Made by a program: the position numbers and the translations under genes
The notes under the pieces: model-generated
The model's input: the letters and a program-made list of their open reading frames with translations, nothing else
What the model was told of the DNA's origin: nothing
Databases searched by the model: none
NCBI GenBank assembly: GCA_964348275.1
Contig: CAYGBT010000003.1
Coordinates: 10,819-74,818, forward strand
Source of the DNA: an uncultured bacterium
GTDB lineage: Bacteria > Methylomirabilota > Methylomirabilia > Methylomirabilales > CSP1-5
Length of the DNA: 64,000 nucleotides
Direction of reading: 5' to 3'
Part shown: positions 8,198 through 43,709 of the stretch, piece after piece
Layout: each line of letters opens with the position of its first letter
Numbering within the stretch: the stretch's first letter is position 1

Positions 8198-8219
8198 ATG
8201 AACCCGAAAGGAGGACGTT

Positions 8220-17818: not shown

Positions 17819-18263
17819 GGCCGGAGTGGGCCGGGTGGTCGCTTCGATCTCTGATCGGGGAGGAAAGTCCGGGCTCCGCAGGGCAGGGTGGTGGGTAACA
17901 CCCACCGGGGGTAACCCCAGGGAAAGTGCCACAGAAAATATACCGCCCCGCCGGTAGCCTTTGTTCTCTTTCTTCGAAAGAGGCTGTCCGCGGGGTAAGG
18001 GTGAAAAGGTGCGGTAAGAGCGCACCAGCAGTCCGGTGACGGGCTGGCTTGGCAAACCCCACCCGGAGCAAGGCCAAATAGGTTCCGCTTCCTGGTGGTC
18101 GCTCATCGAGCGAGGGCGAGGATGAGAGTGGCCCGCTCTCTTGCCCGAAAGGCAGGCGGAACGGGTAGGCCGCTAGAGTCCCAAAGTAATGCGGGACCCA
18201 GAGGAATGACCACCGTTCGCCTTCGGGCGAATACAGAACCCGGCTTATAGGCCCGCTCCGGCC
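17819..18263 (+). ncRNA. rnpB: RNase P RNA, bacterial type A
   Basis: Universal blocks GAGGAAAGTCCGGGCTCC, GGGAAAGTGCCACAGAAA, GGTAAGGGTGAAA-GGTGCGGTAAGAGCGCACC, CCCGGAGCAAGGCCAAATAGG, ACAGAACCCGGCTTAT; the 5' GGCCGGAGTGGGCC pairs with the 3' GGCCCGCTCCGGCC (P1). Confidence 0.93.
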
Positions 18264-25289: not shown

Positions 25290-25546
25290 TTCGCCTCGTC
25301 ATTGCCGATGTGAGGATCTCGCCGGCGCCACCGGTGCAAACAGGGCGACGACCGCGCTTACAATGCCGCCAGTGCTGGGGTTGTACCATGGCGCCAAAGG
25401 ACTGTCAAGGCATGAGCAGGACGGGTGGCTGGTGCGTTAAGACGGTTCGGGCTGAGCGTGAAGCGGGATGGAGCCCGCTGCAGGGCTGTTTGCTTGTATC
25501 GCCGCAACTGGTTAGGTTATGATTGCGCTGAAGCGTCCGGGGTAGG

Positions 25547-26677
<1,131 letters not shown>

Positions 26678-26800
26678 GGCGCTGGCAGGCTAGGAGGCTA
26701 GTACGCTGGAACGCGAGGACGCCAAAAGGCCGTAAGAGTGTGATTGACTGGAGTCCATCCGAGCCTCCTAGCTTCCTAGCGTTCTAGCGTTTGAGGAGTG

Positions 26801-28267
26801 ATGATGCCCGAGCCTCTGAGAGCAAAAATTGTGGTAGCGGACGATGAGGAAAGTGTCCGCTGGACGCTGAAAAAGGCCCTCGAGCGGTCGGGGTACGCTG
26901 TGCTCACAGTCGCGGATGGGAAGGCAGCGGTGGAGACAGCGGAACGGGTCAGTGCCGATCTGGTCCTCATGGATATCAAGATGCCTACCGTGGATGGGCT
27001 TGAGGCCCTCTCCCTACTCCGCGAACGCCGTCCAGATACCATCGTGATCGTCATGACCGCGTTCGGCAGCCTCCAAGCGGCCGTGGAGGCCATGAAGCGG
27101 GGGGCGTACGACTATATCACCAAACCCTTTGATTTCGAGGAGCTCACTCTTCTCGTTCGCAGGGCCCTAGAGGTGAAGACGCTCACGAAGGAGCTGAACC
27201 GGCTCAAGGCCCAGCTGAGAGATCGCCAAGAGTTGGATGAGATCGTGGGGACGAGTCAGGGCATGCAAGTGGTCTTCAAGTTGGTGGGCCAAGTGGCGGA
27301 CAGTGGGGCAACCGTTCTCATCCAGGGAGAAAGCGGAACCGGCAAGGAGCTTATTGCCCAAGCAATTCACAAGAACAGCCCGAGGTCCCAAGGCCCCTTC
27401 GTGACGGTCAACTGTGCTGCCATTCCTAAGGACCTGCTCGAGAGCGAACTCTTTGGCCACGAGAAAGGGGCCTTTACCGGAGCCGTCGCCACCCGGCGCG
27501 GGAAATTCGAGCTGGCCGACAGCGGAACCATCTTTCTCGACGAGATTGGAGAGATGGATCCAGCGCTGCAGACCAAGATTCTTCGAGTCTTTGAGGAGCG
27601 GCGCTTCGAGCGGTTGGGAGGAGAAGTCCCTATCACCGCGGACGTCCGGATCCTTGCCGCCACCAATCGCGATCTTCCGACCCTGGTGACGCGAGGGATC
27701 TTTCGGGAAGATCTCTTCTACCGGCTGAATGTGGTGACCATTGCGCTCCCGCCCCTGAGGGAGCGTCAGGATGATATCCCGCTCTTGGTGGACCATTTCC
27801 TTCGCCTCTATGCGGGAGCAGACCACAAAGAGGTTGCGCCAGAAGCGCTCAACTGCCTTCTCCGGTACCATTGGCCGGGCAATGTTCGGGAACTGGAGAA
27901 TGTGATCAAGCGAGCCTGCCTTCTGGCCCGGACGCGTCTCATCCTTCCGGAGCATTTCTCTGAAGCCCTGCAGGCGGCGGCCAGCGTACCCCATGCTGAA
28001 GATTCCGCTAGCGTCCCGGGAGGACTCGGACGGGAGGTCCGCGTAGAGCTCAAACGCGTAGGTGGAGAGAAAGACGGACAGCTGTACGAGCATCTCCTCT
28101 CCCTGGTAGAGCGCCCCCTGCTACAAGCCGTGTTGGATCGGGCAGGGGGGAATCAACTCAAGGCGGCCCAGCTTCTCGGCATCAACCGGAACACCCTGCG
28201 AAAACGGATGCGGCAGCTTGGGATCTCAGGAAAGAGGGAATCCCCGGAGGGTAGCGACCCTTCCTGA
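26801..28267 (+). CDS. Sigma-54-dependent response regulator (NtrC family bEBP)
   Basis: Receiver domain (VADDEES...DIKMP), AAA+ with GESGTGKE and the GAFTGA loop (EKGAFTGA), C-terminal Fis-type HTH. Confidence 0.9.
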   Translation: MMPEPLRAKIVVADDEESVRWTLKKALERSGYAVLTVADGKAAVETAERVSADLVLMDIKMPTVDGLEALSLLRERRPDTIVIVMTAFGSLQAAVEAMKRGAYDYITKPFDFEELTLLVRRALEVKTLTKELNRLKAQLRDRQELDEIVGTSQGMQVVFKLVGQVADSGATVLIQGESGTGKELIAQAIHKNSPRSQGPFVTVNCAAIPKDLLESELFGHEKGAFTGAVATRRGKFELADSGTIFLDEIGEMDPALQTKILRVFEERRFERLGGEVPITADVRILAATNRDLPTLVTRGIFREDLFYRLNVVTIALPPLRERQDDIPLLVDHFLRLYAGADHKEVAPEALNCLLRYHWPGNVRELENVIKRACLLARTRLILPEHFSEALQAAASVPHAEDSASVPGGLGREVRVELKRVGGEKDGQLYEHLLSLVERPLLQAVLDRAGGNQLKAAQLLGINRNTLRKRMRQLGISGKRESPEGSDPS

Positions 28268-28395: not shown

Positions 28396-29094
28396 TTACA
28401 GCAGGGCCCGGAGTCGATCGGGAGACTTGAGGGTCAGGCGTCGGCCGTGCACCTCCAAGAGCCCTTCCCGCTGAAATTGGCTCAGAAGGCGCATGGCCGT
28501 CTCCGGGCTCAGACCGACCAACGCAGCAAGCTCCCCCCGACGTAGAGACAGATTGAGCATCGTTCCCTTTGATCCCGGCTGCCCGTAACGATCTGCGAGG
28601 TCCAAGAGCTGGGCCGCCATTCGCGTTCGTGCGTCGCTCAGGGCCACGTGGGTGAAGCGGACTTGGGTATCTATCAATACCTGGCACACGTGACGGAGGA
28701 TTGGGAGGAGGACTCGATCCCGCTTTTGGAGCAGTTCGAGAAAGGCCTCGCGCCTTACGAAGGCACTTTGACAGGTGTCGAGCGCTTCAGCGGTATTCGT
28801 GTAGGGTGCCCCGTCCAAGAGGGCTTCTTCCCCGCAGATCTCTCCGGGACCCACAATTCGCAGGATCTGCTGCCGCCCATTATTGGCCCCCCGGGAGAGT
28901 TTTACTCGACCCGAGCAGAGGATGTGGATGCCTAGGGCCGGCATCCCCTCGTGATACAGGATTTGTCGGGGCTGGTAAGTCCGGGTGTGGCGGATCCCTT
29001 TCGTGGCCTCGATCTCCTCGGGAGTGAGCTGGCTAATGAGGAGACACTTCTGTCTGGCTCCGCATTCAACACAGCCGTTCTCTTCCACTGTCAC
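28396..29094 (-). CDS. FNR-type Crp/Fnr family transcription regulator
   Basis: N-terminal C-x2-C-x5-C (CVECGARQKC), cNMP-binding-like beta-roll, C-terminal HTH (RGELAALVGLSPETAMRLL). Confidence 0.85.
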   Translation of the reverse strand: MTVEENGCVECGARQKCLLISQLTPEEIEATKGIRHTRTYQPRQILYHEGMPALGIHILCSGRVKLSRGANNGRQQILRIVGPGEICGEEALLDGAPYTNTAEALDTCQSAFVRREAFLELLQKRDRVLLPILRHVCQVLIDTQVRFTHVALSDARTRMAAQLLDLADRYGQPGSKGTMLNLSLRRGELAALVGLSPETAMRLLSQFQREGLLEVHGRRLTLKSPDRLRALL

Positions 29095-29138
29095 CTCCTT
29101 GGACCGCCGTTCCCCCTAAGCCTGAGTGGATGTGGGGG

Positions 29139-30260
29139 TCACTGCTGGTCTCCCGGGGATTTGCCCCCGTCCGGTTGGTAGACGCAGAGGGGTTCCTCCG
29201 CTAGATAGTCTCCGCTCGTTGCATAGGCTCGTGCCCGAGAACCTCCACAGATCCACCGAAACTCACACTGCCCGCATTTTCCCTTCAACCGGTCCATATC
29301 CCGGAGTTCGGCCAGCCAGGGAGAGTTTCGGTAGATTTCTGACAGGGGTTTCTCCCGCACGTTCCCGAGGAGGGGATAGGGGAGAAAGCCCGCGGGGTAG
29401 ACCTCCCCCTTGTGGGAGACGAAGATCACCCCATTTCCGTCTCTGACCCCAAAGCCCATTGTCTTTCCCAGTCTCTCGATATCATCGAGGGCCATGCCCT
29501 CCTCGAGCTTTCGTTGAATCCAGTGCCTTCGAAAATGTGGAGCCTCCACCGTACTTACATGGAAGGGTGCATCCCCGGAGATTGAGTAGATCCAGGTGAA
29601 AAGATGCTCCACGTCGTCCGCCGAAGGGAGTCCCAGCGTGGCTCCCCGACCCACCGGGACCAGAAGGAAGAGGCTCCATCGGCGGACGGGAGGGGAGGCT
29701 TCTTCCTGCAACAGGCGGTAGAGGGCGGGTAGATGGGGAAGGGTTTCACGAGTGACGGTGGTGTTCACCTGCACGGGGATGTTGGATTCCCGAGCCCACT
29801 GGAGGGCGTTCAAGGAGTGTTCGAACGTTCCGGGGACTCCCCGAAAGGTGTCGTGGACCTCTTGGTTAGGTCCATCCAGGCTGACCCCCATGGCGACCAC
29901 CCCCAGCCTCCGGAATTGGTGGACGGCGTCCCGAGTCAGGGTAGGGGTCGTGCTCGGGGTGATTCCGAGGGGTAAACGGATTTCCCGGGCGTACGCGATG
30001 AGCTCGAAGAGATCAGGCCGCTTCATGGGATCCCCGCCCGTGAAGATCATCATGCTCCCCATGGTCTTGACATCTCGCATCAGGCCTTTCGCTTCATCGG
30101 TGGTGAGCTCCAGGGGGTCTCGGTGGGGAATGGCCTCGGCCCGACAATGCTGACAGGCAAGATCACACGCAGTAGTCATCTCCCAGTAGACGTTGCGCGG
30201 GGCATCCAGATAGAGGTCTCGGGGATAGGTGAATCTCTCTTTGAACCCATCCTGGATCAC
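29139..30260 (-). CDS. Radical SAM enzyme with SPASM-type C-terminal domain
   Basis: Cx3Cx2C (CDLACQHC), GGDP SAM motif, C-terminal Cys cluster CGQCEFRWICGGSRARAY..PLC; GTG start with SD AGGAGA. Confidence 0.85.
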   Translation of the reverse strand: MIQDGFKERFTYPRDLYLDAPRNVYWEMTTACDLACQHCRAEAIPHRDPLELTTDEAKGLMRDVKTMGSMMIFTGGDPMKRPDLFELIAYAREIRLPLGITPSTTPTLTRDAVHQFRRLGVVAMGVSLDGPNQEVHDTFRGVPGTFEHSLNALQWARESNIPVQVNTTVTRETLPHLPALYRLLQEEASPPVRRWSLFLLVPVGRGATLGLPSADDVEHLFTWIYSISGDAPFHVSTVEAPHFRRHWIQRKLEEGMALDDIERLGKTMGFGVRDGNGVIFVSHKGEVYPAGFLPYPLLGNVREKPLSEIYRNSPWLAELRDMDRLKGKCGQCEFRWICGGSRARAYATSGDYLAEEPLCVYQPDGGKSPGDQQ

Positions 30261-30307
30261 GCGGATCTCCTGAGCGATGATCGTGCTTCCGGCTGCATGG
30301 GCGTTCT

Positions 30308-30514
30308 CTACCGTCGAAGCCGTCTATACTGCCGACACAGGATATGCTTCACAGTCGTACACCGGTTCCAGTATTCCCAGAAACCAGGGACCTTGGTGAA
30401 TCCAGAAGCGAGGTCCCGACAGTATCCCGGGATAACCCATTCCTGCGCGTCAGCCTGCCGCCAGAAATAGGGGCAATCTCTTTCGGGGAGTCCTCTTCGC
30501 ATCGGATCGGCCAT
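30308..30514 (-). CDS. Small Cys/Trp-rich protein (68 aa), family not recognised
   Basis: ATG preceded by AGGAAGG at 7 nt; 4 Cys, 4 Trp, basic tail; 47 nt upstream of the radical SAM gene and downstream of a sigma-54 promoter. Confidence 0.55.
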   Translation of the reverse strand: MADPMRRGLPERDCPYFWRQADAQEWVIPGYCRDLASGFTKVPGFWEYWNRCTTVKHILCRQYRRLRR

Positions 30515-30679: not shown

Positions 30680-30696
30680 AGCAATGGCAGTGCCAC
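30680..30696 (-). promoter_or_regulatory. Sigma-54 (-24/-12) promoter, copy 1
   Basis: Minus-strand TGTGGCACTGCCATTGCT = TGGCAC-N5-TTGCT, about 165 nt upstream of ATG 30514. Confidence 0.65.
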
Positions 30697-30802
30697 AATC
30701 TCCGCTGTGGGCCCGCTGAGGTGTTGATTATTTAATCTCTTAATTTTAAAGGACGAAAGACAAGTGTGGGTGGCGGCACATGACAGGATCTGAAATGGGA
30801 AC

Positions 30803-30920
30803 TGGGACAACCATGTCCCAGAGCAGCGTGTTTTCTGACGCAGAGCATGTCTGGACCATATTTTTTACAGGGAGATATCCCCTGGGGCAACTCTGCCACA
30901 TTGGGAAACGGCTTGCCCCA
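30803..30920 (-). promoter_or_regulatory. Putative enhancer (three dyads plus A-tract), copy 1
   Basis: Plus-strand TGGGACAACCATGTCCCA (30803-30820), TATTTTTTACAGG, TGGGGCAACTCTGCCACA (30883-30900), TTGGGAAACGGCTTGCCCCA (30901-30920); same order and spacing as at 42073-42191. Confidence 0.5.
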
Positions 30921-31941: not shown

Positions 31942-32730
31942 CTATTTTTTCGGCAGTGTCTGGGAATGAGCGAGCACATCGACAGCTTGCTTGATGTCCC
32001 AACCCAGAACCACCGCCGAAGGCATAGGAGGATCACTCCCGGGATGTCCCATCCGGACTTTATGCAGGAACTCCTGCGGGTTCTTATTGGCCAACGTGCC
32101 GAGGAACTCAGGCTTTTCCTCGCTACCGAAGTTCAACTTCTTCCCGTCAGCTCCGTGACACGCAACGCAAAGACCGGCAAGCGTCTTCCCGCGGCTCGCA
32201 TCTGCTCCGATCGGCTTCTTCGTCGTGTAGTCGATCACCTTGGTCATGTCGACAAGCCCATCGTTGAGAAAGTTCGCGAGATCGGCGATATCTTGGTCCC
32301 GCATGACTTTTGAGAAATCATGTTTTTTATTGGCCGATCCTCGCAGGATTGCCGCCAGTTGCTCGACACCCTTCTTTTGGGCTGCGTCCCACACGCCGGG
32401 GAATCCTGTGCGATGAGAGCCTGACCCGTAGGCACCATCCTTGCCTTGATAGTCCCAGCCATGGCATTCCTTGCAGCGCCACGTAGTATCTCCCTTCCGT
32501 GTGTTGGTAGTCTGGAGGGACCACAGGGGATGGTCACCCTTGGGCGTGGTAGCCCCCGGAACAACTTTCCACCACTTGTCGTATAACAATCCTCCACGGG
32601 CGACACTCTTGGCGTCAGACCCCGCAGCGGCAGCAAGTGAAATCAGCCCGCTCCCATAGTCCGGTTGGAAACTTAGAGTGAGCCACGCTGCCAGAAAAAC
32701 CAAAGCACTCGCGAACATAACCTTTTTCAT
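31942..32730 (-). CDS. Diheme c-type cytochrome
   Basis: Signal peptide; two CxxCH sites (CKECH, CVACH). Confidence 0.8.
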   Translation of the reverse strand: MKKVMFASALVFLAAWLTLSFQPDYGSGLISLAAAAGSDAKSVARGGLLYDKWWKVVPGATTPKGDHPLWSLQTTNTRKGDTTWRCKECHGWDYQGKDGAYGSGSHRTGFPGVWDAAQKKGVEQLAAILRGSANKKHDFSKVMRDQDIADLANFLNDGLVDMTKVIDYTTKKPIGADASRGKTLAGLCVACHGADGKKLNFGSEEKPEFLGTLANKNPQEFLHKVRMGHPGSDPPMPSAVVLGWDIKQAVDVLAHSQTLPKK

Positions 32731-32830: not shown

Positions 32831-33313
32831 TCAGGCTAAGGAATCTTTGCTCCTGAGGCGATCTTGGATCTCTTTGGCCAGCGCTGCCTGCAGCGTTTGG
32901 AATCGTCCACCAATGATACGGGCGGTGTTTTTCATGACAATGTAGCCCAGGCGAATATTTGTCTCACACAAGTGTTGAATATCAGCTTGGCTTATCTGCA
33001 ACACCTCAGAATCTTCTTTCGCGTACGCCGACAACGTGTATTTGTGGGGATGGGTCACCGCCGACCAACCAAACACTGCCCTTGGGACCTTTATTTCGAA
33101 GGGGATTTCTACCGTGGCACTGTAGTACGAGACTCTGGACCGAAGCTCAATCTCTCCCGCGCATACTAGAAACAGGGATGTGGCCTGTTCGCCCTCCTTG
33201 AAGATTTGTTCTCCCTTCTGGAACTTCTTGGTTTTGCACAGCTTTTTGATGGCCGCCAGGTCTTCCGGTCCCAGACCTTCAAAGATGCTGAATCTCACAA
33301 GTTGTTCTGTCAC
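32831..33313 (-). CDS. Stand-alone cyclic-nucleotide-binding domain protein
   Basis: 160-aa cNMP-binding beta-roll pattern (FKEGEQATSLFLVCAGEIEL). Confidence 0.75.
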   Translation of the reverse strand: MTEQLVRFSIFEGLGPEDLAAIKKLCKTKKFQKGEQIFKEGEQATSLFLVCAGEIELRSRVSYYSATVEIPFEIKVPRAVFGWSAVTHPHKYTLSAYAKEDSEVLQISQADIQHLCETNIRLGYIVMKNTARIIGGRFQTLQAALAKEIQDRLRSKDSLA

Positions 33314-33805: not shown

Positions 33806-35032
33806 TTACTTGCGCTTGCCCTTGAGCCCGTCCAGCTCAACCGATCCTCCCCCCATGTACAGCAGATAGGCAATCAGGTCGGCCATCTCCCCTCCCTTGA
33901 AGACCGGCCAGGCCATGTCCTGCTCCAGCATCATTTCTTCCATACTGGACGCGTGATTCCACATCGCAGTGATGACCTCCAGGGGGGTACCAAGGCCCGC
34001 CGCCGTCGCGAGATTCGGCCCCACAGTTTCGCGAACGCCCCCGAAGGAGTGACAGGAGACACACTGTTTCTCCACGATCACAACCCGCCCCCTTTGGGGG
34101 TCCGCCGCCGGGTCGATGAACTGGAAGAAGTAAAGGTAGTTAATAAGATCCGACATCTGTTTCGTGCTGAGAGAGGGCTCCTTGATCCCCATCTCAACCA
34201 TTTTCTCCCACATCTTGGGGCCGTGGTTCCACATCGCTCCGGCGATGCGCATGAGGCTTCCCGTGAGCGTGGTGCCGAGGTCTGGACCCACCTTGGCGCC
34301 GTGGCCTCGGATCGCGTGGCACTCGACGCACCGCTTCTCCCGGTACAGCTTCTCGCCCCGCTCAGGACTTCCCGGCGGGGCGTACACTCGCTCGAGGCCG
34401 CCAGCGACATCCCGGATATAGGCGAGGAGGTCTGGGATGTCATTCCCCTCAAAGGTGGGGCGCGACACGCCCATCTCCCGCATCGTCTCCGCCATCGCCT
34501 TCCCCTTCTTCCACAGGTCAGTCGTCAAAAAGAGGGGAGAAGCGTACCGGCCGTACTTGTCAAGCGCGGGGCCGATACTCCCGCCTCTCCCTCCCAAGGA
34601 GTGACAGGCCTCGCAGCCCTTTTGGCGGAAGAGGCGTGCGCCGAATGCCGGGTCTCCCGGAGGATCGAGGGAGTTTAGGTAGTACAGGAATGCGATGAGG
34701 CTTGCCATTTCCGAGGGCTCGAATGTGGGCCGGGAAACCCTTTTTTCTCGGAGGACCTGCTCCATTCCGGGGAAGTGGTTCCACATCACCCCGGCGATCT
34801 CCAACAGAGGACGGTTCAGGATCCCCCGGCCCAGCTCGGGCCCCGCGACTCCTCCCACTCCGGTGACCGCATGACACTGCAAACACCCTTTCTCGATGAA
34901 CAGTCGGCTTCCTTCAAGGGGATCACCCGGGAGGAGGGCCGAGAGGGCTCCATGGCCGCCAAAGGATGACGCAGGCACAATGCCAAATCCGACCAGTAAG
35001 GCGAGGCCGAACAACAGGGTTTTGACCTTCAT
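33806..35032 (-). CDS. Four-domain (tetraheme) class-I-type cytochrome c, paralogue 2
   Basis: Signal peptide MKVKTLLFGLALLVGFG; CLQCH, CEACH, CVECH, CVSCH, each followed by an (A)MWNH..M block; ATGA overlap with the upstream small gene. Confidence 0.85.
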   Translation of the reverse strand: MKVKTLLFGLALLVGFGIVPASSFGGHGALSALLPGDPLEGSRLFIEKGCLQCHAVTGVGGVAGPELGRGILNRPLLEIAGVMWNHFPGMEQVLREKRVSRPTFEPSEMASLIAFLYYLNSLDPPGDPAFGARLFRQKGCEACHSLGGRGGSIGPALDKYGRYASPLFLTTDLWKKGKAMAETMREMGVSRPTFEGNDIPDLLAYIRDVAGGLERVYAPPGSPERGEKLYREKRCVECHAIRGHGAKVGPDLGTTLTGSLMRIAGAMWNHGPKMWEKMVEMGIKEPSLSTKQMSDLINYLYFFQFIDPAADPQRGRVVIVEKQCVSCHSFGGVRETVGPNLATAAGLGTPLEVITAMWNHASSMEEMMLEQDMAWPVFKGGEMADLIAYLLYMGGGSVELDGLKGKRK

Positions 35033-35280
35033 GGCTCGCTCCGATCCGTGAGGAGCCCCCAGATGACGTAAAGGACCACGCCGAGGAGCACCAGAAAGAC
35101 CGGGATCGCCACTAACGAGATGCCGATAGAGGCAGAAGGGACGTCCCTGAGGTACCAGGCGGTGCGGATCAGGTGGATGATCCAGATCACGATCCCTCCG
35201 ACGAACAGGACAAAACCTCCCGCTATGGCCCACTGCATGATTCTCACGATTCGATCCGGCGCTGCATGCGGGCGATCCAT
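35029..35280 (-). CDS. Small two-TM membrane protein (83 aa)
   Basis: ATG 35280 lies 1 nt after the NrfD-like stop, with GGAGGG as SD; two hydrophobic helices; coupled to the downstream cytochrome. Confidence 0.5.
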   Translation of the reverse strand: MDRPHAAPDRIVRIMQWAIAGGFVLFVGGIVIWIIHLIRTAWYLRDVPSASIGISLVAIPVFLVLLGVVLYVIWGLLTDRSEP

Positions 35281-35281
35281 G

Positions 35282-36646
35282 TCACCCTCCTCCCTTGGCC
35301 GGGATGAATTCGGGCTCACCCGCTTCCGGGAGGTAGGTCAGGAGACGCTCCTCCACCTCTTTGATGCCTACCTCCCGCCCCTCCTCTATCTCCCAGATGG
35401 AGATGATGGGGAAGAGCTTGGTGAAGAGGAGATAAAAGAGGGCGAACAAGGCAAAGCTGGCCGCCGTTTCTCCCAGCTCTACCCACGTCGGCCAGTAGAT
35501 GCCCGCGGGGAATGGCAGCCGTGGGTACGACAGGGTGGGAACGACGATGATGAAGCGCTCAAGCCACATCCCCACCAGGACCGACAGGGACGCGGTCAGG
35601 ACTTTTCCGATGGTTTGCCCGTCGAGCCTCACCAGGCACAGGAGTGGGATGACGAAGTTGGTGAGGATCATCCCCCAGAAGAATGGCCAGAAGGGACCTG
35701 TGAACTTGGCCCAGAAGACCTTCATCTCCTCTGGATCGCCGCCATAGTAACCGGTCAGGTACTCGGTGAATGTGAAGTAGAACCAGAGGAGTGACATCAC
35801 GAGCAGGAGCTGTCCCAGGTACCTAAAATGAACCGGTCTGAGGTAGCTCTGAAGACCGTACATCTTTCTGAAAATGAGCATGGCCACGATGAGGGCGGCG
35901 ATGCCGGAGAAGATGGCCCCTACCACGAAGTACGGCCCGAAAATCGTCGAATGCCACATCGGCTGGAGCGTCATGGAGAAGACGAAAGAGACCACCGTAT
36001 GGACCGAGACGGCGATCGGGATCACGAGGACCGCCATGATGGCAATGGCGCGGTTGAGAACCTTATGCTGACGCTCCGTCCCCCGCCATCCCAGGGCCAA
36101 CACGGTATAAAAAAACTTTCGCTTTCCGAGACGGTCCCTGAGAATGGCGATATCCGGGATCATAGGGATCCACAGGTAGATGAGGCTGGCCGTCAGGTAG
36201 GCGCTGATACTGGTAGCGTCCCAGAGGAGGGGAGACTGGTAGCGGCCGTGATGGATGACGTTCATGGCCCGGTCAGGCCGACCCAGGTCCACCAGGATCT
36301 GTCCGGCGCCGATGAAGAGGACCATCACGGTGATCACCTCAGCCATCCGGGTGATGGGGCGCCGCCACTCGGCCTTCGAGAGGCGGAGGATGGCCGAGAT
36401 GAGCGTCCCCGCGTGGCTGATCCCGATGAAAAAGACAAAGTTGGTGACGTAAAAACCCCAGGAAACCGGCTGGTGGAGCCCGGTGACGCCCAGGCCTTCG
36501 TTGAGCTGGACCGAGTAGGCAAAGCCTCCCCAGAGGACAATGAGAAACAGGATGGCCACGGCCAAGTAGAAATTACGTCCCGTGTGCTCGATCGGAGCGA
36601 GGAGGATGGCATCTCGCATGTCAGTGGTATGTGCCACGAACTTCAC
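35282..36646 (-). CDS. NrfD/PsrC-type integral membrane quinone-interacting subunit (ActC/QrcD-like)
   Basis: Polytopic protein aligning with the ActC paralogue at 46141-47466 from its N-terminus. GTG start overlaps the Fe-S subunit stop (GTGA). Confidence 0.85.
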   Translation of the reverse strand: MKFVAHTTDMRDAILLAPIEHTGRNFYLAVAILFLIVLWGGFAYSVQLNEGLGVTGLHQPVSWGFYVTNFVFFIGISHAGTLISAILRLSKAEWRRPITRMAEVITVMVLFIGAGQILVDLGRPDRAMNVIHHGRYQSPLLWDATSISAYLTASLIYLWIPMIPDIAILRDRLGKRKFFYTVLALGWRGTERQHKVLNRAIAIMAVLVIPIAVSVHTVVSFVFSMTLQPMWHSTIFGPYFVVGAIFSGIAALIVAMLIFRKMYGLQSYLRPVHFRYLGQLLLVMSLLWFYFTFTEYLTGYYGGDPEEMKVFWAKFTGPFWPFFWGMILTNFVIPLLCLVRLDGQTIGKVLTASLSVLVGMWLERFIIVVPTLSYPRLPFPAGIYWPTWVELGETAASFALFALFYLLFTKLFPIISIWEIEEGREVGIKEVEERLLTYLPEAGEPEFIPAKGGG

Positions 36647-37311
36647 CCTTTCAGGTAGATCACCTTGGGCTTTGTCCCGAGCTCTTCCTGGAGCCTCATG
36701 GCCCGTGGGCTCCGGGCGAGCTTTGACACCTCGCTGCCAGGATCGGAGAAATCCCCAAAGACGATGGCTCGGGCGGGACACGCCTCAGCACAGGCGGGAA
36801 CGTATTCCCCCGGCTCGATCCCCCGTTCTTCGGCGCGGGACCGTGCGCGCACCTTCTGGAGACGATGGTGGCAGAAGGTGCATTTCTCCACCACGCCGTT
36901 TGAGCGGACGGAGACGTCTGGGTTCTGCGCTGGGCCCTCTTTCTGGTAAGTGTGCCAGTTGAAGTACTTGGCGTTATACGGGCAAGCGGCCATGCAGAAG
37001 CGACAGCCGATACAGCGGGCGTAAATCTGGGCGACGATCCCCTCCGGGTTCCGGTAGGTGGCGTAGACGGGACAGACCTTCGTGCAGGGAGGATCGTCGC
37101 AGTGGAGACACGGCCTTGGCAGGAACCGGATCTTCCCGTCAGGGTGTTCTTCATCCGCTTCGGTGAGGACCTGCATCCAACTGATGGTCCGCCCTCTGCT
37201 GGCCTCCTTGGCTCCAACGGCCGGGATGTTGTTCTCGGCCTTGCAGGCCATGACGCAGGCCTGGCATCCGGTGCAGCGATCCAGATCGATCACCATCCCC
37301 CAGAGTGCCAT
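36643..37311 (-). CDS. 4x[4Fe-4S] ferredoxin-type subunit (ActB2/QrcC/PsrB-like)
   Basis: CTGCQACVMACK, CLHCDDPPCTKVCP, CIGCRFCMAACP, CTFCHHR...CAEACP cluster motifs. Confidence 0.9.
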   Translation of the reverse strand: MALWGMVIDLDRCTGCQACVMACKAENNIPAVGAKEASRGRTISWMQVLTEADEEHPDGKIRFLPRPCLHCDDPPCTKVCPVYATYRNPEGIVAQIYARCIGCRFCMAACPYNAKYFNWHTYQKEGPAQNPDVSVRSNGVVEKCTFCHHRLQKVRARSRAEERGIEPGEYVPACAEACPARAIVFGDFSDPGSEVSKLARSPRAMRLQEELGTKPKVIYLKG

Positions 37312-37312
37312 G

Positions 37313-39733
37313 TCACGCCCTCCGTATCCTGACCCTGGTGGTGTTGAAGAGGCCGAAGCCCTTGACAGGGTCCAGCTCGCTCGAGATCAGGTCGTTGGGA
37401 TTGGGACCATCGCCCCCGAAAAGGGGCATAAGGACGACGCCGGGAAGCGTGCCATCATAGAGCTTGGCCTGAAGCCTGATTCGCCCCTTGGAAGATTCCA
37501 CCCAGACCCAGTCGCCGTCGTTGATGGCCAGTTTCTCGGCCGTCTCTGGGTGAACCTCGATCCACTTCTTCCAGGATGCTTCGACGTGGACCGCGGGCTG
37601 CTCCAGGAGCCACGGCTGGTTCTTTCCGCCCCCGACGGGCCGGGTCACAAGCCGGTAAGTGATCAAGCGGAGGGAGGATACTTCCGGCTCCTGTTCCTGA
37701 GCGGAAGGGATCGTAACGGCGGGAAGAAAGAGCAGGTCTCCCCGATCCCACCCCCCGATGGCGCTCACAAAGCGACCTTTTTTCCCCTCGCGCTTCACGG
37801 CCTCATCCACCCACCGCTTGAAGCGGCTCGAGTAAAACTCGAACTTCCCAGACGAGGTCGTAAGGAGGGCTTTCCGGCCAACTGGGAGGCCTGTAGGGTC
37901 CCACCATACTCCCCGCTTGAGCAAAGCGTTCCAGAACTCGTCGTAGTTCTTGAACTCGGGGATCCAGTATCCCTGGCGCTCCAGGATTTTCCTGAGCGAT
38001 TCCTCGGCATGGATCGAGACCACGTATCCCCGCCCTGCCTCGTAGAGTCCTCGGGCTCCTTCGTGAAGGAGGGCCTCGAAGGTGTTCCACGAAAGGCTTT
38101 CGGCAATGGTGCCGCCCAGAGCCTTCGAGATCTGGAGCAGCACGTCACCCGTGTTGCGGGTTTGGTGGAGGGGGGTCGCAGCAGGCCGGGCCAGGCTGAA
38201 GCAGGTGAAGCCAGCCAAATGTGTGACCTGGTCGTCCTGCCACCGCTCCAGATAGGGGTGGTCTGGCAGGATGAGATCGGCCAAAGCGCTGGATTCATCC
38301 AGAAATGGAGAGAAGCTAACAACGAAAGGAACCTGGTCCATCGCTCTGGCAAAAGCTTCTTTAGCCGGATGGTTGGCCAGCGGATTGGTGGCGAAGAGGA
38401 AGAGAGCGTTGATGGGATACGGATCCCCGCTCAGAATCTTTTCTGGTACAGCCTGGGAAGCATCGGAGACCAGGAAGTATTCCCCCAGCCCCGCCCCATC
38501 GATCCTCGGTTTGGCAAGTGCATCCTTTGCGGCCTTGTCTCGCTTAACCGGACGAAGCGGGGCCAGCGGCAGCTCGCCCTGGATCAGGAGGCCGCCGTGG
38601 ACGCCGATGTTTCCAATGAGGGCATTGAGGCTGTGGATGGCCATCCGGGTGTGAAGATCGTCAGGGCCGTACGATGGTCCCCGCTCGCCGATAACAAGGG
38701 CCGGCTTCATCGTGGCAAGATCCCGGCCGATCTCGAGGATAACATCTGCGGGGACGCCGGTGGTCTGCGAAACGGTGAACAGGCCATACTCACTGAGCAC
38801 CAGCTTCTTGAACCCCGTGTGGTGCTGACCGGTTCTGTCCACCCAGTCCTCAAAGCCGAACGTGTGTGTGTCCAAGAACTCTTGGTCAATGAGCCGTTCC
38901 CGGATCAGCACATTGGCGATCCCTAGGGCGAGGATCCCGTCCGTGCCGGGGATGATTGGGACCCACCGATCTGCCTTGGCCGCAGTCTGGGAGCGTCTGG
39001 CATCCACGTGAACGAGCCGGCCCCTCGGACGGTCGCCCGCCCCGCGCAAGCCGGCGAAGGCAAGGGAGGAATGCACCGGACCCATCCAGGATTCCAGAAG
39101 ACCGGCCCCGAAGGAGAGGATCAGTCGGGTCTCAGCGATGTCATAGCCCAGCGGGCTCGTCACTCCCTGCATCAGGTAGTGGGCGAGGGCAGGTCTCTCT
39201 GGCGAGAAGCAGCGGACCCGGATGTAGTTTGGACTCCCGTACGCCTCGGCGAAGCGTTTCCAGAGCGTGTCCCGATAGCCGCGGTACTGTCCCCCCAGGA
39301 TCGCCACGGTGTGAGACAGGCCCTGATCGCGAAGCGCAGCAAGGCGCGTTGTTACCAACCGTAGAGCCTCCTCCCACTCAATCGGACGCAAGCGCCCCTT
39401 CTTTTCATCCCGCACCATCGGCCCCTTCAGGCGGTGGGGGTCGTAGAGGAGCTGGAGTCCCCCAAACGCCTTTGGGCAGAGGGCTCCCCGATTGACGGGA
39501 TGAAGAGGGTTCCCTGAAATTCCCACCGCTTCCCCGTCCAGCGTCCGGACCAGGAGACCACAACCTCCCGGACACTGCTGACAGATGGAGGGGACGACGA
39601 CCTCCTCTGGGGTGGCCCAACGTTCAAAGTCCTGGCGTGCCTGGTCGGCCCTGGTCAGTCGGCCTCTCACCAGGGCGGCGGCTCCGGCAGTTCCACCCAC
39701 AGCCTGTAGGAATCTACGTCGCGTGACTCGCAT
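37313..39733 (-). CDS. Tat-exported Mo-bisPGD-fold subunit (ActB1/QrcB/PsrA-like)
   Basis: MRVTRRRFLQAVGG twin-arginine signal; N-terminal CQQCPGGCG..(x)..C Fe-S motif; molybdopterin-oxidoreductase-like domains. Confidence 0.85.
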   Translation of the reverse strand: MRVTRRRFLQAVGGTAGAAALVRGRLTRADQARQDFERWATPEEVVVPSICQQCPGGCGLLVRTLDGEAVGISGNPLHPVNRGALCPKAFGGLQLLYDPHRLKGPMVRDEKKGRLRPIEWEEALRLVTTRLAALRDQGLSHTVAILGGQYRGYRDTLWKRFAEAYGSPNYIRVRCFSPERPALAHYLMQGVTSPLGYDIAETRLILSFGAGLLESWMGPVHSSLAFAGLRGAGDRPRGRLVHVDARRSQTAAKADRWVPIIPGTDGILALGIANVLIRERLIDQEFLDTHTFGFEDWVDRTGQHHTGFKKLVLSEYGLFTVSQTTGVPADVILEIGRDLATMKPALVIGERGPSYGPDDLHTRMAIHSLNALIGNIGVHGGLLIQGELPLAPLRPVKRDKAAKDALAKPRIDGAGLGEYFLVSDASQAVPEKILSGDPYPINALFLFATNPLANHPAKEAFARAMDQVPFVVSFSPFLDESSALADLILPDHPYLERWQDDQVTHLAGFTCFSLARPAATPLHQTRNTGDVLLQISKALGGTIAESLSWNTFEALLHEGARGLYEAGRGYVVSIHAEESLRKILERQGYWIPEFKNYDEFWNALLKRGVWWDPTGLPVGRKALLTTSSGKFEFYSSRFKRWVDEAVKREGKKGRFVSAIGGWDRGDLLFLPAVTIPSAQEQEPEVSSLRLITYRLVTRPVGGGKNQPWLLEQPAVHVEASWKKWIEVHPETAEKLAINDGDWVWVESSKGRIRLQAKLYDGTLPGVVLMPLFGGDGPNPNDLISSELDPVKGFGLFNTTRVRIRRA

Positions 39734-39741
39734 CGCTTCCC

Positions 39742-40296
39742 TTACCGATGACAGGCGTTGCAATCAGTCAAGATTGCTCGCTGCGCCGCCGCCTCCGGTT
39801 TCACTTCTCCTGCTTCGTTTCCTCTGGACCACTCCCACTTCTCGTGACAGCGGATGCAGTCGTCCATGGTGAGGATCTTGAGGGCGCGCGCGGGGGGGCG
39901 GTCAAGGGTCTCCATCGGTCCATGGCAGGTCTGGCACTTCACCTTTGCCACCACCACGTGCGTGCGGTGAGGGAAGAAAACGTGAGAGGGGAGTCGCCAG
40001 ACGCGCTTCCAGGGGATCTCCTCGCCCTTTTCTTCGAAGGCTTGGAGCCTCTTCAATTCCTGGCTCTCGGGCTCCCCCCCCGAATGGCAGCCAAGGCACA
40101 ACGTGGTGGGAGGACGGCCTGCGACGACATCCTTCTCCGCTCGTTGGTGGCAGTTCGTGCACGTCAGGCCCACCTCCAGGTGGGTCTTGTGGGGGAACTC
40201 GATCGGCTGCCTGACAGCGGGCTCCGCCAACAGACGCCATGCTCCCCACGCGAAGAGGCCCAGGGCGAGCAGACCGACCGCAGCGAGCCACCTCAT
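39742..40296 (-). CDS. Pentaheme c-type cytochrome (ActA/NrfB-like)
   Basis: TM/signal anchor MRWLAAVGLLALGLFAW; CTNCH, CLGCH, CQTCH, CIRCH, CNACH. Confidence 0.8.
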   Translation of the reverse strand: MRWLAAVGLLALGLFAWGAWRLLAEPAVRQPIEFPHKTHLEVGLTCTNCHQRAEKDVVAGRPPTTLCLGCHSGGEPESQELKRLQAFEEKGEEIPWKRVWRLPSHVFFPHRTHVVVAKVKCQTCHGPMETLDRPPARALKILTMDDCIRCHEKWEWSRGNEAGEVKPEAAAQRAILTDCNACHR

Positions 40297-40483
40297 GGTG
40301 TTTCCCCGCGCTCGGCCCCTTGCGTTTGTCCCATAGCAGCCGGCGCCCCGCATCGGCCGTCGGCATGGTGTCCGTGAAGCCTTGATGGCACAGCCACCCT
40401 GACTGTGGTGAGAGGGGGTATCCAGCGTTTCTCCGTAGCGCCGCCCCCGTTGGTGTTCGTGGGGAAAAAACCCCGCAGGCCCT

Positions 40484-41827
40484 TCACCGGTTCTGCCTCA
40501 GCGTCTGGAGGTAAGCAACGAGGTCAGCCATCTCGTCTTGGCGGAACTGGGGCCAGGTGACCCCTTTAACCTCGGTTACCCGTTCCATGACCAAGGCGTG
40601 GTTCCACAATATTGAGATGACTGCGGCAGGCGAGACAAGGTGCTTCACCCGGGCGAGGTCGCCCGCGACCTTCCCGCCCTTCCCACGGACCGAATGGCAC
40701 TGCAAACACCCCTTGTCCTTCACCAGCTTCCGTCCCTTGCGGGGTTCGGTCGGTCCGCCGAAGTATTGGACAGAGTAAAGGTAGGCGACAAGGTCCGCCA
40801 TCTCTTCCGCCCGGAGTTGTGGGATGGAGATTCGCTTGGCCTTCATCGCCTTTATCATCGCCGGGGTCTTGTTCCACATCGCTGTCGCAAACTCAGTAAG
40901 GCTCCGGTGAACTCCTCGCTCGCCAAGGTCAGGCCCGAGCCGACCGCCCCGTCTTCCAATGCTGTGGCACACACGGCAGCCCTTCTCCACGAACAGCTCG
41001 CGCCCTTCGTCGGCGCGGCCGGGCAGGACATACAGCGGTTCCTCCTCCGGCTCCGGCGAGGCGGATTTGAGGTAGGCGATCAGATCGATGAGCTCCGTTC
41101 CCTTAAATGTGGGTCGCTCTATTCCTCTTGCCCGCATGGCCTCGGCCATGGCGGGGCCGTGGTTCCACATCGCCGTCGCGACATAGATCGGCGAGCCATA
41201 CTGCTTGAGCAAGTCGAGGTTAGGGCCGATCACGCCGCCAGTTCCACCCACCTGGTGGCAGATCACGCACTGCTTCTCGATGAAGATTTCTCTACCGGTC
41301 TCGGGATTCCCAGCGGGATCAAAGTAGTTGAGGGTATACAGAAAGGCGATCAGATCGCCGGTCTCCTGCGGACTGATGTGAGGGTGGGAGATCCCGAGCT
41401 CACGCATCTTTTCGGCCATGCGGGGAAAGTGGTTCCACATGGCCGCGGCAAGATCGTAGAGCGAGCGGGGACGCGAGATACGGCCGAGATCGGGCCCGAC
41501 CTTCCCGCCCTTCCCGTTCACGGCGTGACACTCGGTACATCCCTTAGCCCCGAAGACCCGCGACCCGACAACCGGGTTGTGGGTCGGGCTGAGAAGTTGC
41601 TGGGCGAATGCCAGTCCCAGGGACCAAAGGAGCAGAAGGACAACAGATATCAAGGAGAAGAAATAAGCTGGAGGAAAAGTGATAACGCCGCCCCGGGCAG
41701 CGCCAGAGCGAGGGATCTCGGCCAGATCCGGATGGCCGAGAAATTTCGTTTCGCAACAAGAGGAAGGGGTTCTCCCTCTCGCCAGCGATTCCCAGGCGGG
41801 TTGTGTGCGCTGTCGTCTGATCCTCAT
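40484..41827 (-). CDS. Four-domain (tetraheme) class-I-type cytochrome c, paralogue 1 (start uncertain)
   Basis: CTECH, CVICH, CRVCH, CLQCH with MWNH blocks. The 562-aa ORF start (42172) lies inside a regulatory module, so ATG 41827 or a later codon before the TM segment SLISVVLLLLW is more likely. Confidence 0.75.
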   Translation of the reverse strand: MRIRRQRTQPAWESLARGRTPSSCCETKFLGHPDLAEIPRSGAARGGVITFPPAYFFSLISVVLLLLWSLGLAFAQQLLSPTHNPVVGSRVFGAKGCTECHAVNGKGGKVGPDLGRISRPRSLYDLAAAMWNHFPRMAEKMRELGISHPHISPQETGDLIAFLYTLNYFDPAGNPETGREIFIEKQCVICHQVGGTGGVIGPNLDLLKQYGSPIYVATAMWNHGPAMAEAMRARGIERPTFKGTELIDLIAYLKSASPEPEEEPLYVLPGRADEGRELFVEKGCRVCHSIGRRGGRLGPDLGERGVHRSLTEFATAMWNKTPAMIKAMKAKRISIPQLRAEEMADLVAYLYSVQYFGGPTEPRKGRKLVKDKGCLQCHSVRGKGGKVAGDLARVKHLVSPAAVISILWNHALVMERVTEVKGVTWPQFRQDEMADLVAYLQTLRQNR

Positions 41828-41951
41828 CCGAGTTCGAATGATCGAGAGCTCCCCTGCTAGCGCAGTGGTTTGAGGAGGAGAAGAGCAAAGAACCTCGCCG
41901 TTTGTAATCGTTACATGCGCAGATCCGGTGGCAGACTCGGGGTCCGTGGAA

Positions 41952-41968
41952 GCAAAGGCGGTGCCACA
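41952..41968 (-). promoter_or_regulatory. Sigma-54 (-24/-12) promoter, copy 2
   Basis: Minus-strand TGTGGCACCGCCTTTGCT = TGGCAC-N5-TTGCT, about 125 nt upstream of ATG 41827. Confidence 0.65.
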
Positions 41969-42072
41969 TACTGCCTGGCAGGGCAAAGGAGGGTCGTCGC
42001 GACGTAACACATTGTCTTTAAAGGAGTACTTCAATCGGAGACGAGCCGACCAGAGAGCGGTGGAAGACGTCA

Positions 42073-42191
42073 TTGGGGCAAATACGCCCCAGAGCAGGCC
42101 CTCATCTGACGGCGGGCAGGTTTGTGCCTTATTTTTTACAGGAAGATACCGTTTGGGGCAACTGTGCCACACCCGACAAGGCCTTGTCCCA
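42073..42191 (-). promoter_or_regulatory. Putative enhancer (three dyads plus A-tract), copy 2
   Basis: Plus-strand TGGGGCAAATACGCCCCA (42073-42090), TATTTTTTACAGG, TGGGGCAACTGTGCCACA (42154-42171), CCCGACAAGGCCTTGTCCCA (42172-42191, containing the perfect palindrome GACAAGGCCTTGTC). Confidence 0.5.
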
Positions 42192-42436
42192 CCCGATACC
42201 CTTTCTTAATGAGTCGAAGGGGTTGTGCCACCTCACGGCGTTCCTGAGAAGCTGTGCAAGCCCTAGACCGAACAGGAGACGGTCGGGGAGGATAAAGGTT
42301 GTGGTCTCGCCGCGCGTACTGTCCGGGCAGCACGCTCAGCTCGCGCCGTGGCTGGCGAAAATGATTCATCCGTTAGGATGAAGTGTTGGACGTAACAATC
42401 CCGGGTCTGACGGCGGCCATGCACCAAGAGGCTCGA

Positions 42437-42551
42437 TTACGGTTGCCGCCTTTTCAAGGTCTTCAGATATCTTTCGACATCCCGGACCTGCTGCTGCAAT
42501 AGCGTCGTGCTCCACTCGGGCGCAGAGGTCCCTTTCGCTGATCGCGGACAA
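42437..42551 (-). pseudogene. Fragment duplicating the 3' end of the diheme cytochrome gene at 43041-43709
   Basis: Encodes ..AKG..PEWSTTLLQQQVRDVERYLKTLKRRQP*, compared with ..AKGFHGSPYMPEWRTTLSQQQIQDVMEYLKTFKKPNP* in the intact gene; no start and no heme site. Confidence 0.6.
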
Positions 42552-42554
42552 GTC

Positions 42555-43028
42555 CTATTTCTTTGCCAATGTCTGGGCATGGGCCAGCACATCGACACCT
42601 TGCTTCATGTCCCAGCCGAGAACCAGCGCCGAAGGCATGGGAGGATCGCTACCCGGATCTTTCACCCAAACCTTGTGTACGAACTCTTGCGGGTCCTTAT
42701 TGGCGAAGGTGCCGACGTACCTGGGCTTTCGCTCAGAGCCGAAGTTCAGCTTCTTCCCGTCAGATCCGTCGCACGGCACACACAGATGAAAGAGCCTCTT
42801 TCCACGGCTCGCATCCCCTCCGATCGGCATGTTGGCCCTGTGGTCGACGTATTTGGTCATGTCTACAAGGCCATGCTTGAGAAACTTCGCACGGTCGGCA
42901 ATATCTCGATCCCGCATGACTGAGGAAAAATCATGTTTGCGATTGGTCGATCCTCACAGGATGGGCGCCAGTCGCTTGATGCTCTTCTGTTGGGCCGCGT
43001 CCCAGACACCGGGAAATCCTGTACGATG
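42555..43028 (-). pseudogene. 5'-truncated, inactivated paralogue of the diheme cytochrome c gene at 31942-32730
   Basis: Collinear with the last ~157 codons of 31942-32730 (HRTGFPGVWDAAQ...VLAH.QTL.KK*). In-frame TGA at 42954-42956, heme motif CVACH changed to CVPCD, first heme domain absent. Confidence 0.7.
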
Positions 43029-43040: not shown

Positions 43041-43709
43041 TTACGGATTAGGCTTTTTGAAGGTCTTGAGATACTCCATGACATCCTGAATCTGCTGCTG
43101 CGATAACGTGGTCCTCCACTCGGGCATATAGGGGGAGCCGTGAAATCCTTTGGCCCCCCCCATGAAGATGGCTCGGGAGATTTCCTCTTCCCGCCCCTCG
43201 ATGACAAATTCCTCGGAAGTGAAATCCCTTGGCGTCACACCGACCAAGTTCTTGGCGGCGGGCCCTTGTCCATCCCCTCGGGATCCATGACACGCTTGGC
43301 AGAAGGTGTTGTAAATATCCTTGCCCGCCAGGATGCTTACATGTTTGCCCGGCACTGCGAGGGTCCGGATATACGCAATGGCATCGCGAAGCGCCTCTTC
43401 CTTCAGCGACTCAATGACAGTTGCCATGGGCATATGCGCAGTGTCGGGACGCCCCTTTCTTTGTGTGAGCGTGGAAACGATCTGCTGATTAGACCTGCCT
43501 CCGAGGACTGCGGGGTTGGTAAAATCGGGTAGCGGTGTAGCGATATATTGGGCAGCCGGGCCATCTCCCCGGCCGTAACGACCGTGACATGTCCAGCAAA
43601 AGGTCATATATACCTCTTCCCCCTGGGGAACCACCGCTTGGGCCTGTGGCTGAGCGGCAACCCCGCCTGCCATCAAGAGGAGTCCGAGAATCGCCATCCC
43701 CGCTCTCAT
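43041..43709 (-). CDS. Diheme cytochrome c (c4-like)
   Basis: Signal peptide; CWTCHGRYGRGDG and CQACHGSRGDG class-I motifs. Confidence 0.8.
   Translation of the reverse strand: MRAGMAILGLLLMAGGVAAQPQAQAVVPQGEEVYMTFCWTCHGRYGRGDGPAAQYIATPLPDFTNPAVLGGRSNQQIVSTLTQRKGRPDTAHMPMATVIESLKEEALRDAIAYIRTLAVPGKHVSILAGKDIYNTFCQACHGSRGDGQGPAAKNLVGVTPRDFTSEEFVIEGREEEISRAIFMGGAKGFHGSPYMPEWRTTLSQQQIQDVMEYLKTFKKPNP

Follow-up and report, generated by a model that had tools for sequence, protein, structure and literature searches.

In a 64,000-nucleotide stretch of DNA from an uncultured bacterium of the Methylomirabilales (contig CAYGBT010000003.1; hereafter the window), the same arrangement of sequence elements was found twice on the minus strand, once upstream of an operon encoding a radical-SAM (rSAM) enzyme (module 1, 30680-30920) and once upstream of an operon encoding a Qrc/ACIII-like complex (module 2, 41951-42191). 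Judging from the sequence, each copy probably constitutes a complete regulatory module for sigma-54 and a bacterial enhancer-binding protein (bEBP), a reading to which a probability of roughly 0.8 is assigned. Such a module would comprise, with increasing distance from the gene, an RpoN-type -24/-12 promoter, an AT-rich site resembling that of integration host factor (IHF) at about -70, a proximal dyad of the form TGGGRCA-N4-TGYCCCA about 118 bp upstream of the GG of the -24 element, a conserved A-tract segment and, 80 and about 99 bp beyond the proximal dyad, an abutting pair of distal dyads. The elements are the following, the dyads being given without strand:

30680..30697, minus strand: sigma-54 promoter of module 1, TGTGGCACTGCCATTGCT, exact consensus; block identity 0.85
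30733..30745, minus strand: IHF-like site of module 1, AATTAAGAGATTA, in an AT-rich box centred at about -70; one mismatch to WATCAANNNNTTR
30803..30820: proximal dyad (dyad 3) of module 1, TGGGACAtggtTGTCCCA (minus-strand reading); centre 118 bp upstream of the -24 GG
30821..30882, minus strand: inter-dyad segment of module 1, with the GGGGATATCTCC box, the A-tract CCTGTAAAAAATA, CAGAC.TGCTC and GCGTCAG; identity 0.61-0.71 over seven modules versus 0.36-0.40 in spacers
30883..30900: distal dyad (dyad 2) of module 1, TGTGGCAgagtTGCCCCA (minus-strand reading), 80 bp from dyad 3; best conserved block, 0.86
30901..30920: dyad 1 of module 1, TGGGGCA-N6-TTCCCAA, degenerate; adjoins dyad 2
41951..41968, minus strand: sigma-54 promoter of module 2, TGTGGCACCGCCTTTGCT, exact consensus
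42005..42017, minus strand: IHF-like site of module 2, AGACAATGTGTTA; two mismatches to the consensus
42074..42091: proximal dyad (dyad 3) of module 2, TGGGGCGtattTGCCCCA (minus-strand reading), 118 bp from the GG
42092..42153, minus strand: inter-dyad segment of module 2, with the A-tract CCTGTAAAAAATA; conserved
42154..42171: distal dyad (dyad 2) of module 2, TGTGGCAcagtTGCCCCA; at most two mismatches to the dyad consensus
42172..42191: dyad 1 of module 2, TGGGACAaggcctTGTCGGG, which includes the palindrome GACAAGGCCTTGTC

In both promoters, the GG and GC dinucleotides stand exactly 10 nt apart within TGGCAC-N5-TTGC, and both promoters are intergenic and on the same strand as the operon downstream. 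The -24/-12 element of module 1, TGGCACtgccaTTGC, occupies 30681-30695(-), with the GG at 30693-30694, the GC at 30681-30682 and a predicted transcription start at about 30669, while that of module 2, TGGCACcgcctTTGC, occupies 41952-41966(-), with the GG at 41964-41965, the GC at 41952-41953 and a predicted start at about 41940; the full 18-mers, TGTGGCAC..TTGCT, cover 30680-30697 and 41951-41968. An earlier inspection of the letters alone (the sequence-only reading) had already recognised a canonical -24/-12 element at both loci, which stands, except that each of its ranges was one base short. The scan for TGGCAC-N5-TTGC that it had proposed, run here on the window, returned three exact matches versus 0.10 expected, a number reached in none of 100 shuffles, and two of the three are the module promoters. 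The third, TGGCACGATCCTTGC at 4543-4557(-), drives a PilZ-domain gene (3800-4500, minus strand), and a divergent PII (glnB-like)/glnE operon starts 49 bp away from it; the PilZ orthologue in a related locus is preceded by the same promoter (L082 2677, minus strand), and no TGGGGCA-type dyads are present at the PilZ promoter.

The dyads are 18 bp long, with the consensus TGGGGCA-N4-TGCCCCA, in which G4, C6, G13 and C15 are invariant. When the window was searched for this consensus with at most two mismatches, only dyads 2 and 3 of both copies were recovered, four matches versus 0.48 expected, a number reached in 1 of 100 shuffles. The spacing is the same in both copies, with 80 bp between dyads 2 and 3 and 118 bp between the centre of dyad 3 and the -24 GG. 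Measured from the GG, the three dyad centres of each copy are at distances of 118, 198 and 217 bp upstream, which places at least two inverted repeats within the region of about 80-250 bp upstream of the -24 element; relative to the predicted start, the dyads as a whole occupy the stretch from about 140 to 240 bp upstream. The palindrome GACAAGGCCTTGTC is found at 42175-42188, and the position orthologous to dyad 1 in a related contig (L081) is a perfect 18-bp palindrome, GGGACAACATGTTGTCCC.

Pairwise alignment placed the two copies in one gapless register with an offset of 11271. In this register, the upstream block (30928-30803 versus 42199-42074, about 126 nt) is 71% identical and the promoter is identical at 16 of 18 positions, whereas the spacer between them has diverged to about 35-45% identity; the A-tract CCTGTAAAAAATA is identical in both copies. 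Most of what the sequence-only reading had described is borne out by these results, namely dyads at the same relative spacing in both loci (dyads 2 and 3 were located, at identical spacing), a dyad 1 that adjoins dyad 2 and contains the palindrome in copy 2, an A-tract shared between dyads 2 and 3, an alignment that continues without gaps through the promoter, and the genes flanking the modules.

The same module was found upstream of the operon formed by a small open reading frame (ORF) and the rSAM gene in five other Methylomirabilales contigs (L081, L083, L085, L086 and L090) that carry a close orthologue of the NtrC-type bEBP of the window (26801-28267) or of the rSAM gene. As the metagenome scan with the rSAM protein gave only five loci, the alignment, almost gapless over 312 columns, comprises seven modules, including the two of the window. 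TGGCAC, TTGCT and two C's of the promoter spacer are invariant in all seven, and in the orthologous modules dyads 2 and 3 are 79-80 bp apart, with dyad 3 located 116-119 bp from the GG. Mean pairwise identity is 0.86 in dyad 2, 0.85 in the promoter, 0.75 in dyad 3, 0.72 in dyad 1, 0.71 in the GGGGATATCTCC plus A-tract box and 0.66 in the AT-rich box matching the IHF consensus WATCAANNNNTTR, as compared with 0.36-0.40 in spacers and flanks. The elements are therefore conserved as footprints between randomised spacers, which answers in the affirmative the question of dyad conservation in orthologous loci that the sequence-only reading had raised. The IHF-like columns (207-229) reach 0.66 versus 0.40 in the neighbouring spacers, and the predicted site matches WATCAANNNNTTR perfectly in three modules (L081, L085 and L090, at the same columns), with one mismatch in two (including copy 1) and with two mismatches in two (including copy 2). 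The inter-dyad segment is probably a bend or the site of an architectural protein.

Recurrence of the arrangement was assessed by an architecture search (two dyads 65-86 bp apart, then a sigma-54 promoter) over the window and related loci, amounting to 1.38 Mb. It yielded 16 matches, corresponding to 14 distinct modules, versus none in twenty local shuffles. In the modules found, the dyads are 69-83 bp apart and the sigma-54 promoter follows 99-138 bp further on, and the dyad spacings cluster at 69-72 and at 79-83 bp, two classes that differ by about one helical turn. Three modules were identified in NC10 bacterium CSP1-5 (L035), where one precedes an FeS/molybdopterin oxidoreductase operon, another the orthologous Qrc-like operon and the third an FAD-type oxidoreductase. 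Additionally, L086 has a second module upstream of a gene for a PCP_red-repeat protein, and L087 and L088 carry modules even though their rSAM protein is only 50% identical. In L091, a divergent-promoter version, with two abutting dyads and a third 72 bp away, lies between hemA and rSAM genes. At 6298-11188, that locus has a homologue of the rSAM gene of the window, 78% identical, beside hemA (glutamyl-tRNA reductase) and two more radical-SAM genes, the region being flanked by two kinase/bEBP pairs; this neighbourhood supports a tetrapyrrole-related role for this rSAM family.

Control by sigma-54 appears to extend further among Qrc-like operons. In most of the lineages sampled, including Rokubacteria, Binatia and Deltaproteobacteria, the QrcA-like gene has a sigma-54 promoter upstream. 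In six loci (L014, L015, L016, L019, L024 and L040) from metagenome-assembled genomes (MAGs) labelled Deltaproteobacteria, Syntrophobacteraceae and Binatia, a nearly identical promoter, TGGCATAAG(G/C)(C/T)TTGC, was found before the QrcA-like gene, about 600-650 bp upstream of the QrcB-like gene. This suggests that the Qrc-like operon family either came under sigma-54 control in ancient times or has spread horizontally. In Rokubacteria (L003, L004, L006, L007, L010 and L030; e.g. L007 9235-9462), the Qrc-like and kinase/bEBP operons are divergent, their sigma-54 promoters being 210-340 bp apart with a single dyad, TGTGGGGA-tttt-TCCCCAC, midway between them, which resembles an autoregulated version of this theme that uses another bEBP.

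From the observed elements and from their spacing, conservation and enrichment, we infer that both promoters depend on rpoN and are activated from the dyads. Dimers of one bEBP would occupy the proximal dyad and the distal dyad pair, and the A-tract and the IHF-like site would bend the DNA and join these dimers; the AAA+ oligomer would then contact the promoter-bound sigma-54 holoenzyme and use ATP for promoter opening, so that the rSAM operon and the Qrc/ACIII-like operon would be induced together. That these two operons form one regulon, as the sequence-only reading had proposed, is supported by the footprints, by the recurrence of the module, by the presence of dyads and a sigma-54 promoter at the Qrc-like operon of CSP1-5 and by the sigma-54 promoters found before QrcA-like genes in most lineages.

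The leading candidate for the activator is a neighbouring two-component system:

25547..28267, plus strand: candidate cognate two-component system, consisting of a PAS histidine kinase (25547-26677) and an NtrC-type bEBP (26801-28267)

The regulator combines REC, AAA+ (with the GAFTGA motif) and HTH_8 domains, is the sole bEBP in the window and is encoded 2.4 kb from module 1, in a pair convergent with the module 1 operon. It neighbours every one of the five Methylomirabilales rSAM loci and adjoins a module in the window, L081, L083, L086 and L090; in other phyla, a kinase/bEBP pair usually adjoins the Qrc-like operon. The pair may be the activator of the module, at odds slightly below even. 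The sequence-only reading had named this regulator as a possible driver of the two operons, which is plausible; the complete adjacency at rSAM loci is set against adjacency at only five of seven regulator loci and against the presence of the motif elsewhere without a regulator orthologue.

Several observations weigh against the proposed module or against this activator. No rpoN gene was identified among the annotated ORFs of the window; the presence of sigma-54 in the genome is implied by the GAFTGA motif of the window bEBP. Dyad 1 has an N6 spacer instead of N4 and is degenerate in both window copies, and conservation covers the whole 60-nt inter-dyad segment, beyond the dyads, so another factor may bind there. 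As regards the regulator, two of its loci (L082 and L084) have neither an rSAM locus nor a module within 10 kb, and the gene order conserved around it involves the acd genes and not the module. It resembles generic NtrC/AtoC proteins and scores below the curated NCBIfam cut-offs (519.6 versus 558.6 for TIGR01818, NtrC; 515.3 versus 714 for PRK11361, AtoC). The motif is present in L035, L087, L088 and L091 with no regulator orthologue nearby, and other lineages with the same dyads have unrelated bEBPs nearby or none; in L091, the recognition helices of the two bEBPs differ from that of the window regulator.

Other candidate relationships of the regulator were examined and rejected. Orthology with the Rokubacteria bEBPs beside Qrc-like operons was dismissed on the basis of different recognition helices (INRNTLRKRM versus TRDELRYRVKK). 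No sigma-54 target common to all loci of the regulator was obtained either: the acd operon is its conserved neighbour, and the intergenic region of that operon has conserved sigma-70-like elements but lacks a -24/-12 element. In the window, this region lies between the ADP-forming acyl-CoA synthetase genes and the kinase/bEBP pair (25290-25546; also in L081-L084) and contains two conserved sigma-70-like promoters, CCTTGACAG-N17 in one direction and CTTGT..TATGAT in the other. The homologue in Methylomirabilis lanthanidiphila (59% identical) is located near a nirBD-like operon with a sigma-54 promoter, where no recognisable dyads were seen, and canonical NtrC boxes, TGCACCA-N3-TGGTGCA, numbered four in the window versus 2.3 expected, with none near a sigma-54 promoter.

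The similarity of the two copies could in principle be a neutral remnant of a segmental duplication that included the 3' end of a cytochrome c gene, in which case the dyads would be functionless. A duplication did happen in this region, since 300 nt of the cytochrome c gene (31942-32241) are repeated at 42555-42854, just upstream of module 2, with 76% nucleotide and 71% amino acid identity and a CxxCH to CxxCD change. However, the cytochrome c repeat has an offset of 10613 and the modules one of 11271, and within the single register of the modules spacers and flanks show identities of 0.28-0.40 versus 0.64-0.94 for the elements. Moreover, in the upstream block copy 1 resembles its orthologues in other genomes (0.74-0.75) at least as much as it resembles copy 2 (0.71), which indicates that the duplication is old and that the shared elements were retained by selection, and the same elements recur before unrelated genes in other lineages. 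Neutral persistence, against which the sequence-only reading had cautioned, is therefore rejected for the module as very improbable. The pair would instead offer a clean example of regulon growth, in which a whole enhancer-promoter cassette was duplicated and both copies were kept by selection. As for the remnants themselves, the C-terminal haem domain of the cytochrome c encoded at 31942-32730 recurs in truncated form at 42555-42917(-), with CVACH changed to CVPCD and a 120-codon frame still open, and the neighbouring 42436-42528 preserves 93 nt that share 75% identity with the 3' end of another cytochrome c gene (43041-43709); these remnants are better preserved than the module spacers.

If selection maintains the dyads, it could act on another function than bEBP binding. 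They might be operators of a different regulator that modulates or represses the promoter, for example the Crp/Fnr protein encoded at 28396-29094 or the helix-turn-helix (HTH) protein of L083, L085 and L086; a Crp/Fnr gene is found with the rSAM gene at each of the five Methylomirabilales loci, sites of the Crp family are dyads of similar length, and the inter-dyad segment is conserved beyond the dyads. Nevertheless, a sigma-54 promoter depends on an AAA+ activator, the module conserves no further candidate for an enhancer, a position about 140-240 bp upstream of the predicted start is typical of bEBPs and not of Crp-type activation or repression, and the modules of L035, L087, L088 and L091 have no Crp gene nearby. 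Likewise, a consensus scan predicted no sigma-70-like promoter in the upstream block; one possibility, TTGCCC-N17-TAAAAA, was discarded, as it was not predicted by the scan and its -10 positions are not conserved among orthologues. We therefore consider the operator explanation unlikely. Alternatively, the dyads could be transcribed into RNA hairpins at which transcripts of the upstream operons are terminated or processed, or which form part of a structured RNA, considering that each could give a 7-bp stem with a 4-nt loop and that the modules lie just downstream of preceding operons. Against this, among 28 distinct dyads position 5 is R and position 14 is Y, the half-sites vary independently and no mirror pair is in excess: positions 5 and 14 are complementary in 16 of the 28, as compared with 15.1 expected by shuffling, and pairing-breaking A/C combinations occur in five. 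The two arms of dyad 3 had been said to change together between the copies, a claim that fails on this larger set. Independent half-site variation argues against a hairpin role, and it is normal for a protein-binding dyad, so the site assignment is not weakened. In addition, the dyads lack a following T-run, neither module has a predicted terminator-like site on its minus (transcribed) strand, Rfam gave no match to the modules, and an RNA role would leave the conserved spacing to the sigma-54 promoter unexplained. Hairpins are considered very improbable. The Rfam search for known RNA families in the window returned only RNase P RNA (bacterial class A, 17823-18263(+), 313 bits), which lies elsewhere.

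Under the sigma-54/bEBP reading, the genes controlled by the two modules are the following:

28396..30514, minus strand: module 1 operon, with a 68-aa Cys-rich ORF, a TIGR04053 radical-SAM/SPASM gene and a Crp/Fnr-family regulator gene
30308-30514, minus strand: 68-aa Cys-rich ORF directly upstream of the radical-SAM gene; no family match
29139-30260, minus strand: TIGR04053 radical-SAM/SPASM protein, 429.6 bits versus a cut-off of 395; next-best families AhbD and NirJ
28396-29094, minus strand: Crp/Fnr-family regulator, at the end of the rSAM operon
33806..41827, minus strand: module 2 operon, encoding a six-gene Qrc/ACIII-like complex; the true start of its first gene may be downstream of 41827

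The module 2 operon encodes a four-domain cytochrome c, a QrcA-like multihaem cytochrome, a QrcB-like molybdopterin-family subunit, an FeS subunit, an NrfD-type membrane subunit and a cytochrome c. Since the Qrc families of NCBIfam were matched below their cut-offs (QrcA 81 versus 180, QrcB 267 versus 440, QrcD 41 versus 570), the complex can be called only Qrc/ACIII-like. The region belongs to a long respiratory island with a haem-copper oxidase, ACIII and molybdopterin oxidoreductases, and its best relatives are Methylomirabilales/NC10 MAGs. The 68-aa ORF is conserved in L081, L083, L085 and L086 (59-65% identical), with four invariant Cys, one His and the motif FWEYWNRC; its product may serve the rSAM enzyme as a substrate peptide or as a small partner that binds metal. 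Between the remnants of the ACIII operon and module 2, a terminator-like hairpin, TTCATCCTAACGGATGAA followed by TCATTTTC, is present at 42365-42382(-), consistent with module 2 opening a separate transcription unit. Within 20 kb, a GAF-adenylate/guanylate cyclase (12462-13622, plus strand) and two cyclic-nucleotide-binding proteins are encoded, the Crp/Fnr regulator at 28396-29094(-) and a protein without an HTH domain at 32831-33313(-), and a cyclic-nucleotide layer may exist above the sigma-54 control.

The control of further redox genes by the same module in relatives points to a lineage-wide regulon. Its signal could, speculatively, be redox or oxygen, as hinted by the PAS kinase, by the Crp/Fnr regulator, by Usp and CBS proteins among the targets in relatives and by the AhbD/NirJ-like rSAM protein. 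A broader and distinctly tentative proposal is that of a previously undescribed regulon across Methylomirabilota and neighbouring lineages, in which one dedicated sensor/bEBP pair co-induces the AhbD/NirJ-like rSAM enzyme with its Cys-rich partner, haem-rich quinone-interacting complexes and other redox genes, with a loop formed inside the enhancer. If this were true, the rSAM enzyme might act in oxygen-independent haem or cofactor maturation, and the enhancer would be an unusual one, with two groups of sites 70 or 80 bp apart, and thus helically phased, around a conserved A-tract, so that assembly of the activator would need an intra-enhancer loop. The modules provide a testable cis-regulatory code for the uncultured NC10/Methylomirabilales, formed by TGGGRCA-N4-TGYCCCA, the spacing rules, the IHF-like site and the sigma-54 promoter. 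They also tie the TIGR04053 rSAM protein and its 68-aa partner to cytochrome-rich respiratory complexes, which suggests a common physiological trigger and a route to function prediction. In the literature, no paper was found on sigma-54 regulation in Methylomirabilis or on TIGR04053.

As compared with known systems, the mechanism itself is textbook, and what is new is the motif, the wide enhancer split around an A-tract, the gene set and the lineage. At the enteric glnAp2 promoter, NtrC binds TGCACCA-N3-TGGTGCA dyads located more than 100 bp upstream of the -24/-12 element, where adjacent dimers nucleate the active oligomer. The modules share with this system an NtrC-type HTH_8 response regulator as candidate activator, dyads with TG...CA half-sites and their location more than 100 bp upstream of the -24/-12 element. 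However, the motif of the modules is TGGGGCA-N4-TGCCCCA (18 bp, N4), a conserved A-tract lies in the 80 bp that separate the strong sites, the targets are respiratory and cofactor genes instead of nitrogen assimilation genes, canonical NtrC boxes are not enriched in the window and the regulator falls under the NCBIfam NtrC cut-off. NorR, a bEBP with a GAF domain, acts at norVW from three clustered GT-N7-AC sites, all of which are needed for one bEBP oligomer. The number of dyad sites upstream of a sigma-54 promoter and the redox or NO-related targets are similar, whereas the window regulator has a receiver domain in place of GAF and a long gap separates the site groups of the modules. At pspA, controlled by PspF, and at other promoters of this kind, an enhancer, an IHF site and a -24/-12 element follow one another, and protein-induced bending delivers the activator. 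The modules show the same order, but their IHF-like site is only a consensus match at about -70, and the A-tract, probably a second bend element, is located within the enhancer itself. Finally, comparative genomics predicted that DVU3142 and a sigma-54 promoter control ohcBAC in Desulfovibrio vulgaris (PMC4641369), which likewise brings together a two-component bEBP, a sigma-54 promoter and an operon for a periplasmic multihaem cytochrome/membrane electron-transfer complex. The two systems differ in phylum, complex and motif, and the module described here additionally drives a radical-SAM operon.

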